Of a stretch of 25,768 nt of DNA, positions 8,570 to 10,069 are shown piece by piece. The DNA lies in IMG/VR virus record IMGVR_UViG_3300031334_000014, positions 1 to 25,768 of that record; one strand, given 5' to 3'. This stretch comes from a virus (taxonomy: Duplodnaviria; Caudoviricetes). Every line of letters begins with the position of its first letter. Positions within the stretch are counted from its first letter, which is position 1. The notes beneath the pieces are model-generated. The model was not told the origin of the DNA and made no database searches. It saw nothing but the letters and a program-made list of their open reading frames with translations. The position numbers were made by a program, and so were the translations under genes.

Positions 8570-9000
8570 GGAGTGTGTCCCGCCTAACGCTTTCGCGCCG
8601 GTCCACCAGATCTACCCCACGCCGGGCATGCCTCGGAATTAGGAAAGCCCGCCGTCGCGTGATGCGGGGCGGGATGTGTTGAGTGCACTTGATGTAGACT
8701 GATGGACTTCATTACCAGCAATTGCGAGCCTGTGCCGCGCTCAGGAGGTGATGCTGTGGGATCATCTAGGGCCGGGTATCCCACTGGATTACCAATGCCA
8801 GCCTTTTCTGCATCACCGCCAAAGGGCAGTTTAACGTCAGCGCGCTAATGCCTTACTTGCCCGCATTAGTGGGCCAATAGTAACCCGCCGCGAGGCGCAT
8901 CGTTGAGAGGCGGGGCGGGTGTTGTTTTCGGAGTTAGCGGGCTTTCCCCACCTTGGGCACATTGGTTTAGCCTCGAACTTTATAACTGGTGAGTTACAAA
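8570..9000 (-). ncRNA. Candidate structured late-operon leader / ncRNA
   Basis: About 450 nt with no credible ORF, several nested stems and repeated blocks (see findings); family not recognised. Confidence 0.4.
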
Positions 9001-9009
9001 TCGTGTACG

Positions 9010-9043
9010 ATTATCACGTAACGCAAATAATCTACTGTGTCAA
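9010..9043 (-). promoter_or_regulatory. Possible late promoter
   Basis: Minus-strand TTGACA at 9043-9038; the -10 is non-canonical (TACGTG at 17 nt, GATAAT at 21 nt). Confidence 0.35.
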
Positions 9044-9228
9044 GCGGCCTGAGCGTCCCTAACCATCATAGCAATGCAGTGAGCCGCTATCGGGTTTACA
9101 GGAACGTCGCCAGCCTCCCACCTCCGTATGGTGCGCCCCCCGTTGATACCCATTCCCCAAGTTTCGGCCAGGGCGGCGCAGGAGCAGCCCAGCGATTGCC
9201 GAGCTGCTTTAAATTCTTGTCGGGTCAT
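9040..9228 (-). CDS. Small XRE-type HTH regulator (Aca-like)
   Basis: MTRQEFKAARQSLG...LAETWG...RTIRRWEAG..PV is an HTH_3-type pattern; start re-called at ATG 9228 (ATGA coupling). Confidence 0.8.
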   Translation of the reverse strand: MTRQEFKAARQSLGCSCAALAETWGMGINGGRTIRRWEAGDVPVNPIAAHCIAMMVRDAQAA

Positions 9229-9374
9229 GCGTTGGTTTCGTCTGTCCACCAGTCTGTATTTTCCCAAACTTTAATAAATTCGGCTTCATTTTCTACTGCA
9301 TCAGCAATTCGGTCAGCCTCTTTATTGCTGATGTCAAACCGGCCTGCGATGTCGTTAATTTCTGAAGTGTTCAT
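9225..9374 (-). CDS. 49-aa acidic hypothetical protein (not in ORF track)
   Basis: MNTSEINDIAGRFDISNKEADRIADAVENEAEFIKVWENTDWWTDETNA; AAAGGGA RBS; ATGA overlap with the HTH gene; has its own promoter. Confidence 0.75.
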   Translation of the reverse strand: MNTSEINDIAGRFDISNKEADRIADAVENEAEFIKVWENTDWWTDETNA

Positions 9375-9413
9375 TTTTTTCCCTTTGTGGTGGGCTTCAT
9401 TGCCCCTGAATAT

Positions 9414-9442
9414 ACATTAGGGCATTACGCCCTATCACGCAA
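9414..9442 (-). promoter_or_regulatory. Sigma70-type promoter with palindromic operator
   Basis: TTGCGT-N17-TAATGT; inverted repeat TAGGGC-N5-GCCCTA at 9418-9434 fills the spacer. Confidence 0.7.
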
Positions 9443-9466
9443 CACCTAATTTGCACTCCCCCGCAA

Positions 9467-10069
9467 TTATCTCACCATAGCCACGGCCAGCCGATCAAGC
9501 GCCGCCCGTAAATGCGCCATGCCTTGGGACAGGTTCTCACGCTGGTATTGCTTGAGGTGCGCGACTGTCCTGCCCTCACCTACCACCGCCGCCAGAATCG
9601 CCCTGTCGCTCTCGATGATGTGCTTGGACACGGCGAGATAGTCAGACATGCGGTCGATCTGGATGTCAATGTGAGCATCTGGCTTAGACGTGCTGTCAAC
9701 GCGGGTTGCGGCATAGTCGGTCCCCTTGCTGCGTTGCGTTGCCGTCCAAGCGTCCCTTAGAGCCTCGCCAGCCGTAAAGCCTGCGTCGCTGATCCGGCCA
9801 AGTCGATGATAAGTTTCCAGCATATCAACGCGCCGCACGCCCTTCACCCCGTTGGGATTGACGCGCTCACCCGTGTCTGGATCAACATCGCCGCGGGCCT
9901 CAGATACCAGACCAACGCGGTTTGCCTGCCCGGTTGCGCCTTGATCCCACCTTGGCTTGGCCAACGACACATCGCCGCGCTTCTGGGCCTTGATGCAAGT
10001 TCCGTGCTTGAGGCGCATTTTTGACTTTGCGTCTGCCCACTGGGCGGCGGACTCGATTGCTTTGCTCAT
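9467..10069 (-). CDS. Putative late-gene activator/antiterminator (DUF6456 / GafZ-like)
   Basis: LE.YH..GRIS...F.AGE.LR..W motif and a sigma region-4-like C-terminus (LRAALDRLA); Q-like position before the packaging operon; GGAGG RBS. Confidence 0.6.
   Translation of the reverse strand: MSKAIESAAQWADAKSKMRLKHGTCIKAQKRGDVSLAKPRWDQGATGQANRVGLVSEARGDVDPDTGERVNPNGVKGVRRVDMLETYHRLGRISDAGFTAGEALRDAWTATQRSKGTDYAATRVDSTSKPDAHIDIQIDRMSDYLAVSKHIIESDRAILAAVVGEGRTVAHLKQYQRENLSQGMAHLRAALDRLAVAMVR

Follow-up and report, generated by a model that had tools for sequence, protein, structure and literature searches.

The question raised by this locus is whether a short segment between two backbone genes of a tailed phage is a self-contained counter-defence cassette, in which a small variable gene is controlled by the HTH protein encoded behind it, and what the 49-aa product of that gene might do. 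The window, i.e. the whole 25,768-nt stretch of viral DNA analysed (positions 1 to 25,768 of IMG/VR record IMGVR_UViG_3300031334_000014), belongs to the genome of a tailed phage and contains ORFs resembling those for capsid, portal, terminase, replication and lysis proteins, these labels being read from the ORF-list translations. An initial annotation made from the sequence had described an acr-aca-like insert with its own promoter, and had proposed the peptide as a candidate anti-CRISPR (Acr) or DNA-mimicking anti-defence protein.

An insertion present in some phages and absent from close relatives

The cassette lies on the minus strand, flanked by a 200-aa gene and the leader of the packaging genes, and comprises or adjoins the following elements:

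9467..10069, minus strand: upstream 200-aa backbone gene of the PHROGs family phrog_21451, left border of the insert
9044..9474, minus strand: 431-nt insertion (moron cassette), replacing 4 nt of the empty allele
9437..9442, minus strand: predicted -35 box TTGCGT
9418..9434, no strand assigned: predicted operator TAGGGC-N5-GCCCTA, with the family core GGNC-N5-GNCC
9414..9419, minus strand: predicted -10 box TAATGT, which overlaps the end of the operator
9392..9405, minus strand: leader hairpin GGGC-AATGAA-GCCC at the predicted mRNA 5' end, 17 nt before the start codon, which folds in the predicted leader
9380..9384, minus strand: Shine-Dalgarno-like AGGGA
9225..9374, minus strand: acidic cargo protein of 49 aa, belonging to a conserved orphan family (motif FDIS-x2-EA-x-RI...EF-x3-W-x4-WW)
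9040..9228, minus strand: 62-aa XRE-type HTH protein, coupled to the cargo by ATGA (phrog_14076, E 3e-6)
9038..9043, minus strand: TTGACA box belonging to the phage backbone, which overlaps the HTH stop codon, marks the right border of the insert and may serve as a downstream promoter

The upstream gene (10069-9467), initially labelled a late activator, has no Pfam match, and PHROGs assigns it only to phrog_21451, a family without known function. Seven viral loci encode this protein, and the DNA downstream of it was read in six of them (L330 ends at the gene). In L332 and L333, whose upstream proteins are 99% and 97% identical to that of the window, the gene is followed directly by the TTGACA box, which is thus common to empty and filled alleles, whereas L329 and L331 carry the same cassette as the window. 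The final codons of the upstream gene differ between filled and empty alleles. In L334 (upstream protein 73% identical), the same promoter and hairpin precede an unrelated 83-aa cargo and a related HTH, and L335 (64%) holds an unrelated insert in the same slot. The ~400-bp insert, first placed at 9040..9445, is therefore a true indel of slightly greater length, 9044-9474. Phage morons are self-contained accessory inserts, and this segment, self-contained and absent from close relatives, has their defining property. The 49-aa ORF had also been described as AT-richer than its flanks. This holds (GC 0.42), and within the cassette it applies to the cargo alone, the HTH gene having a GC of 0.60 and the window as a whole 0.56; because of the difference between the two genes, their base composition suggests that they are of separate origin.

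Two further features of the neighbourhood were observed. A hairpin in the downstream leader (8883-8919, minus strand) gives a sub-threshold Rfam match to the abiF RNA (28.8 bits against a cut-off of 37, E 0.007), and L332 and L333 contain a stretch resembling it. The segment 8606-6953 (minus strand), which separates the leader from the terminase genes, encodes a ParB-like protein and a C5 DNA methyltransferase; this pair is missing from L331, L332 and L333, where a different small gene precedes the terminase, and the region would thus form a second variable slot.

The hosts of the cassette-bearing phages are probably roseobacter-type Alphaproteobacteria, because the HTH genome loci include Roseobacter, Pelagibaca and Rhodobacterales records and the one cultured phage in which the module was found infects Paracoccus.

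Promoter, operator and hairpin form a module linked to the HTH

The promoter TTGCGT-N17-TAATGT (9442-9437 and 9419-9414) and the palindrome filling its spacer (9434-9418) are present as initially described. Within the window alone they are no better than chance: a consensus promoter scan did not flag the pair, and the window contains 12 perfect 6-N5-6 repeats. We regard the cis elements as real because they are conserved in related loci. A DNA pattern consisting only of CCTA, a gap and the hairpin matched at least 121 stretches in viral contigs (about 190 estimated), of which 113 distinct ones were listed. Among these 113, a -35-type TTG or TTTA starts at the corresponding place in 81, an RBS-like site occurs in 82 and both occur in 72, neither element being part of the pattern. 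A palindrome with 4 or more of its 6 pairs intact is found in 51 of the 72 listed matches with both elements versus 3 of the 41 others. Where at least 1400 nt of downstream DNA was available, a related HTH follows in 32 of 38 full modules and in none of 30 other listed matches.

The same linkage is seen from the protein side. The HTH-selected set comprised 87 of 101 HTH loci (3 duplicate or incomplete and 11 distant loci were excluded) and 75 after removal of repeats. The hairpin, with up to 2 mismatches, lies within 2 kb upstream in 66 of these 75, or 65 if a chance match outside the module (L196) is set aside, compared with 1 of 75 in the reverse-strand control. Three of the loci without it have less than 500 nt upstream, and some of the others seem to use an unstructured leader. 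The module has a constant order, i.e. -35 box, GGNC-N5-GNCC operator, -10 box, hairpin and, about 20 nt further, the start codon. Operator and hairpin thus travel with the HTH in front of a variable slot, which bears out the acr-aca-like layout initially proposed. A relaxed pattern run over 401 host-family genomes was uninformative, its matches being no more frequent than those of the reversed control. Several full modules occur in one genome in L147 (3 copies), L131-L133 (one contig) and G324 (7 copies on 5 short contigs), which suggests that one repressor controls several operons there.

In 60 distinct promoter-proximal modules the operator core is near-invariant (G3 in 59, G4 in 60, C6 in 59 and G12 in 58), while its centre varies freely; the terminal CCTA was demanded by the search script and is no evidence of conservation. 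Complementary bases occupy positions 5 and 13 in 34 of 60 modules versus 23.2 after shuffling, which ignores kinship. Paracoccus phage Pkon1 has a perfect operator palindrome in which both inner arms are changed, a compensated variant. A conserved inverted repeat within the core promoter, as expected of Aca-controlled operons, is therefore present. In a distant HTH clade (L039, L045, L089, L090, L096), the same hairpin stem accompanies an operator with a 6-nt centre.

The hairpin (9405-9392) had already been noticed in the 5'-UTR of the window. It is unchanged in 50 of the 60 promoter-proximal modules, its asymmetric loop AATGAA being retained, near-invariantly, in 50 of 60, and the distance from its end to the ATG is 16-23 nt for 58 of 68 copies. 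A conserved hairpin thus stands between the predicted start site and the ribosome-binding site, as in RNA control of the Aca1/Aca2 type. Among 86 copies in protein-selected loci, only four stem changes were found, all of them C to T at one position; they keep a sense-strand G.U pair and are not independent events. Two-sided covariation was not detected among the 86 copies, in which the stem is almost invariant. In a tree of 32 HTHs, the clade of the window has the loop AATGAA in 19 of 19 members, and at least two more distant clades have the same stem with related loops; relatives share labels, so this is no proof of co-evolution. The stem is common to at least three divergent HTH clades.

Nine further hairpin copies have no detected promoter, two being at contig ends and seven before internal genes. 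These internal copies (L166, L169, L184, L194, L203, L204, L238) lie in intergenic DNA upstream of the HTH, and each is preceded by another GC-rich hairpin, whose loop is of the GCAUAA or UUCG type, and by a C-rich linker. In L260, L303 and L305, this additional hairpin occurs by itself in front of peptide genes. A uORF opened by the ATG of the hairpin loop was considered and rejected: in the window this short frame runs up to the start of the cargo, yet the frame is not constant over 68 copies. An Rfam search with the hairpin gave no match. The 14-mer, searched as DNA, RNA and reverse complement, was found in no paper by full-text search, the motif logos of PMC13551039 being images, so that overlap with them is possible, and literature searches returned nothing on this cassette family. 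We conclude that the family is real, bears an unusually exact sequence tag and is apparently undescribed, its architecture being known in kind.

The HTH is related to Aca-type regulators

The initially predicted small XRE-type HTH gene (9228-9040) overlaps the peptide ORF by ATGA, an arrangement consistent with translational coupling, and like an Aca gene it ends an operon of small variable genes. The best PDB matches of the family profile are Aca3 (E 3e-5) and Aca2 (E 9e-5), followed by YdiL and 7xi5; no chain named Aca1 was among the matches, and with a narrower profile only Aca3 remained below 0.001. Against the Aca2 family model (Pfam PF08965, Aca2_YdiL), the HTH scored 14.4 bits, below the cut-off of 23.8, and with 62 aa it is shorter than the roughly 120 aa of that family. 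It also fell below every NCBIfam cut-off, with a weak match to the MqsA family (19.7 versus 61.8 bits). A tblastn search of cultured phages with the HTH and the peptide found nothing, a plasmid search recovered two distant HTHs, and ESM Atlas placed the protein among generic viral HTH clusters. By these tests the HTH appears to be a relative of Aca-type regulators outside the curated Aca families. It is likely, by analogy, the autorepressor of the cassette, and we would call the system Aca-like rather than an Aca system. For repression acting on both DNA and RNA, Aca2 serves as the model.

The cargo slot is highly variable

The pattern-selected loci encode at least 93 distinct cargo proteins in at least 75 clusters, with a median length of 79 aa and 54 of 93 net acidic; these numbers derive from automated gene calls, some proteins being cut at locus ends. 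The 65 HTH-selected loci, which overlap with this set, contain 95 cargo ORFs in 62 clusters, one of them an HTH remnant. The fixed partner gene of a type II toxin-antitoxin system, the case that would have told against the proposed cassette, was thus not found: one HTH family accompanies 62 cargo clusters, and because the cargo is so variable a fixed toxin-antitoxin pair is excluded. In L092 (1700-1890), only three codons of cargo are left in front of an intact HTH; the slot has been emptied.

For annotation, 99 proteins were compared with Pfam and PHROGs, 104 more with Pfam (35 of 39 new cargo proteins, 61 of 158 ORFs at peptide loci and 8 HTHs) and 132 with NCBIfam. Pfam, PHROGs and NCBIfam contain Acr models. 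None of these searches, which covered a sample of loci, matched an Acr family among cargo or neighbours, and no other named anti-defence family was found among the cargo scanned. Acr families are narrow, and misses in such libraries are weak evidence. The expectation that the slot upstream of HTH homologues holds varied small genes was thus borne out, while the known Acrs also expected there did not appear in the scanned sets.

Most cargo remained without annotation. Matches were obtained to Mom (L043), a DNA methyltransferase (L077), DUF4942 with a methyltransferase (L032), a TAGT glycosyltransferase (L182), LPD29 (L194, L238), DUF6011 and pentapeptide repeats, so that the annotatable cargo appears to be mostly of DNA-modification or conflict type. 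According to PMC13551039, Mom and LPD29 also occur in Aca operons. Unannotated proteins of 50-62 aa that share a hydrophobic C-terminal tail recur in L234 (2837-2998), L235 (2852-3001), L236 (2837-2998), L237 (2819-3001) and L336 (1536-1724), which are the prophage (L234-L237) and Pkon1 members of the cassette family. They are candidate membrane-anchored exclusion factors.

The 49-aa peptide is a conserved orphan protein

The ORF initially described as missed by the ORF track is confirmed at 9374-9225, with 13 D/E, 4 K/R and 3 W. It has 15 close matches (self included), and the family extends to 56 rows at E<=0.001 among 50%-identity representatives, the weakest being a doubtful repeat protein. 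The pN/pS ratio against 20 homologues is 0.15-0.50, with pS near saturation; the gene is real, conserved and under purifying selection. The peptide also forms the N-terminal part of 98-185-aa proteins. Across 41 aligned members, F13, I15, E19, R22, I23, F33, W37, W42 and W43 are conserved at 90% or more.

The AlphaFold2 model, built from 14 sequences, has helices at 3-12, 17-26, 30-38 and 44-47 (mean pLDDT 79.6), i.e. a predicted small helical bundle. The conserved aromatics and arginine would fit a surface that binds protein better than mimicry of DNA. The peptide had no family match and no PDB sequence match, and fold searches of the model gave nothing at E<=0.001 in PDB or BFVD. In a wide fold search, UBA-like three-helix bundles ranked first (Z 6.2, rmsd 2.0, 48 residues aligned), and the EF-Ts N-terminus reached Z 6.0; such scores lie below the level at which they would mean more than a common arrangement. 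Mimicry of HU, which came first in the Foldseek search at E 2.8, was considered and discarded, since the peptide profile reached no more than 7.5 bits against the HU/IHF proteins of two genomes. ESM Atlas gave no usable match.

Among 66 peptide loci taken (53 distinct), an HTH lies downstream in 13 of the 35 with enough DNA and the hairpin upstream in 12 of 39, two of these being chance-like. Other homologues stand behind different promoters or in runs of early genes, with other regulators or none; the peptide moves independently of the HTH regulator. In L289, L295 and L307, it follows a different promoter and an A/C-rich leader without hairpin, another palindrome being present in L289 and L295. 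In L325 (2441-4018), the homologue is followed by HTH proteins of 130 and 117 aa (weak YdaS and VC1465 matches) and an acidic 120-aa orphan.

Proposed mechanism and alternative explanations

We propose, with a probability of roughly one half, that the HTH represses the inserted two-gene cassette at both the DNA and the RNA level, and that the cargo binds a host protein and thereby blunts a non-CRISPR defence. What is established is the insertion, the conserved cis module and its linkage to the HTH, the variability of the cargo and the purifying selection on the peptide. In the hypothetical scenario built on this, (i) host RNA polymerase would fire the promoter when the DNA enters the cell, producing a burst of cargo and coupled HTH; (ii) an HTH dimer would then bind GGNC-N5-GNCC between the -35 and -10 boxes and switch transcription off; (iii) the HTH might also bind the 5' hairpin and block ribosome loading about 20 nt downstream; (iv) the helical bundle of the peptide may bind a host defence protein stoichiometrically via R22 and W37/W42/W43. 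By analogy with Aca1 and Aca2, we consider the burst and the subsequent shut-off very probable. The RNA-level brake is weaker, its odds being a little above even, and the binding of a defence protein by the peptide is the most tentative step, with somewhat less than an even chance. A general anti-defence role of the peptide is plausible, and a non-CRISPR component is a more likely target than a Cas protein; a CRISPR component as target seems very improbable.

The hairpin need not be an RNA bound by the HTH, because two-sided covariation was not found, its stem GGGC/GCCC is the operator half-site with a 6-nt spacer, and it is shared among at least three HTH clades. It might instead be a second DNA operator past the start site, a reading to which the 6-nt-spacer operator of one HTH clade lends support, or a 5'-stabilising or gene-shuffling element, as the internal copies behind a second GC-rich hairpin recall repeated intergenic units. 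Repression would then act on DNA only, and either cargo function could go with it. This is quite possible, at distinctly less than even odds: the loop is asymmetric and near-invariant while the operator centre varies freely, all four stem changes (not independent) keep the sense-strand G.U pair, and the distance to the start codon is fixed. The main rival to our proposal keeps the same autoregulated cassette but sees in it a general moron slot, the peptide serving host takeover, lysogen fitness or superinfection exclusion. The hydrophobic-tail protein of the prophage copies and Pkon1 looks more like an envelope moron, many peptide homologues sit amid ordinary early genes without the HTH, and most cargo is unannotated; the annotatable cargo, however, leans to DNA modification and LPD29, and a turnover as extreme as 62 clusters in 95 ORFs would be in keeping with an arms race without proving one. 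We consider this rival possible, if the less favoured choice.

The two functions originally suggested for the peptide fared less well. That it is a true anti-CRISPR, with the HTH as a new Aca, would fit the layout and spacing of acr-aca1, the small acidic product and the presence of cas1 in 23 of the 121 genomes searched from the probable host family (that of the Roseobacter genome behind L233), and the narrowness of Acr families weakens the force of library misses. Yet no cargo or neighbour scanned in the three libraries matched an Acr family, and 98 of the 121 genomes searched lack cas1, so we rate this reading as highly unlikely. That the peptide is an acidic DNA mimic acting like Ocr or Ard is suggested by the 13 D/E against 4 K/R in 49 residues, but is improbable: the conserved positions are F, I, R and W rather than an acid array, with E19 as the sole acid conserved at 90% or more in 41 homologues, close homologues are less acidic than the window peptide, and net acidity is common among the cargo anyway (54 of 93). 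A toxin-antitoxin pair with an HTH antitoxin, in MqsA- or HigA-like order, would agree with the coupled two-gene layout and the MqsA-family match, itself far below its cut-off; it is barely credible for an HTH that accompanies 62 unrelated cargo clusters and in L092 none, and for a peptide found with other regulators or none.

In practical terms, the 14-nt hairpin and the operator provide an exact DNA handle for candidate counter-defence genes of marine alphaproteobacterial phages that needs no Acr as bait; the module search yielded more than 70 full modules and at least 60-75 cargo clusters. Should the 62-residue HTH recognise operator and hairpin alike, it would be a very small model of dual DNA and RNA recognition, and direct tests are possible in the cultured phage Pkon1, which carries the module. 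If the cargo is unrelated to defence, the acr-aca architecture would be a general moron-control device, which would limit Acr mining by guilt by association. The widest version of our proposal, an undescribed Aca-like regulon of roseobacter-type phages in which several HTH clades read one invariant 14-nt hairpin on RNA and a related operator on DNA, and in which well over 60 orphan families tagged by the hairpin, the helical WW-motif peptide included, inhibit defences of marine Alphaproteobacteria, is speculative, and we hold it to be unlikely at that breadth.

Comparison with known systems

The closest counterpart in layout is acrIF1-aca1 of Pseudomonas phage JBD30. PMC13551039 and PMC9410881 give a 17-bp TAGG...CCTA repeat between the -35 and -10 boxes and ending in the -10 box; the Aca1 probe in PMC9410881 (TTGCG, a 17-bp TAGG-N9-CCTA repeat and TAAT) has the same spacing as the cassette. 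In Aca1 operons, according to PMC13551039, a hairpin directly follows the predicted start site and ends about 20 nt before the first gene, a small cargo precedes the HTH, and extra motifs stand before internal genes and neighbouring operons, comparable to the seven promoterless internal hairpin copies described here. The cassette differs in its inner operator bases, in the lack of Acr cargo among the loci scanned, in its 4-bp hairpin stem with a fixed 6-nt loop and in its probable roseobacter-type hosts. In PMC13551039, RNA motifs are given for Aca1, Aca2, Aca10 and Aca12, with RNA binding demonstrated for Aca1, whereas for Aca10 and Aca12 the purified proteins failed to bind the motifs predicted for them, a result that counts against the RNA-level brake proposed here. 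The Aca7, Aca11, Aca10 and Aca2 repeats printed in PMC12658196 and PMC9410881 differ from the cassette operator.

Aca2 (DUF1870, Aca2_YdiL) and Aca3 are the nearest solved relatives of the HTH profile. The cassette HTH is nevertheless much shorter than the Aca2 model (62 aa against 118 profile positions) and scores below its cut-off, and the repeat and hairpin of Aca2, as given for the probe in PMC9410881, differ in sequence from those of the cassette. With phage morons, the cassette shares its own promoter, AT-rich cargo and presence or absence between near-identical phages, and the unrelated insert of L335 occupies the same slot; unlike them, it comes with a regulator of its own and with an operator and a hairpin found throughout the family. 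A further relative is p72-p71 of Paracoccus phage vB_PkoS_Pkon1 (MK291442), annotated only as a hypothetical protein and an XRE regulator, with an identical hairpin, a palindromic operator in the promoter spacer and a small cargo coupled to the XRE gene. Its HTH clade and cargo are different and it is inserted in the lysis region, but with these shared elements Pkon1 is a cultured member of the cassette family.
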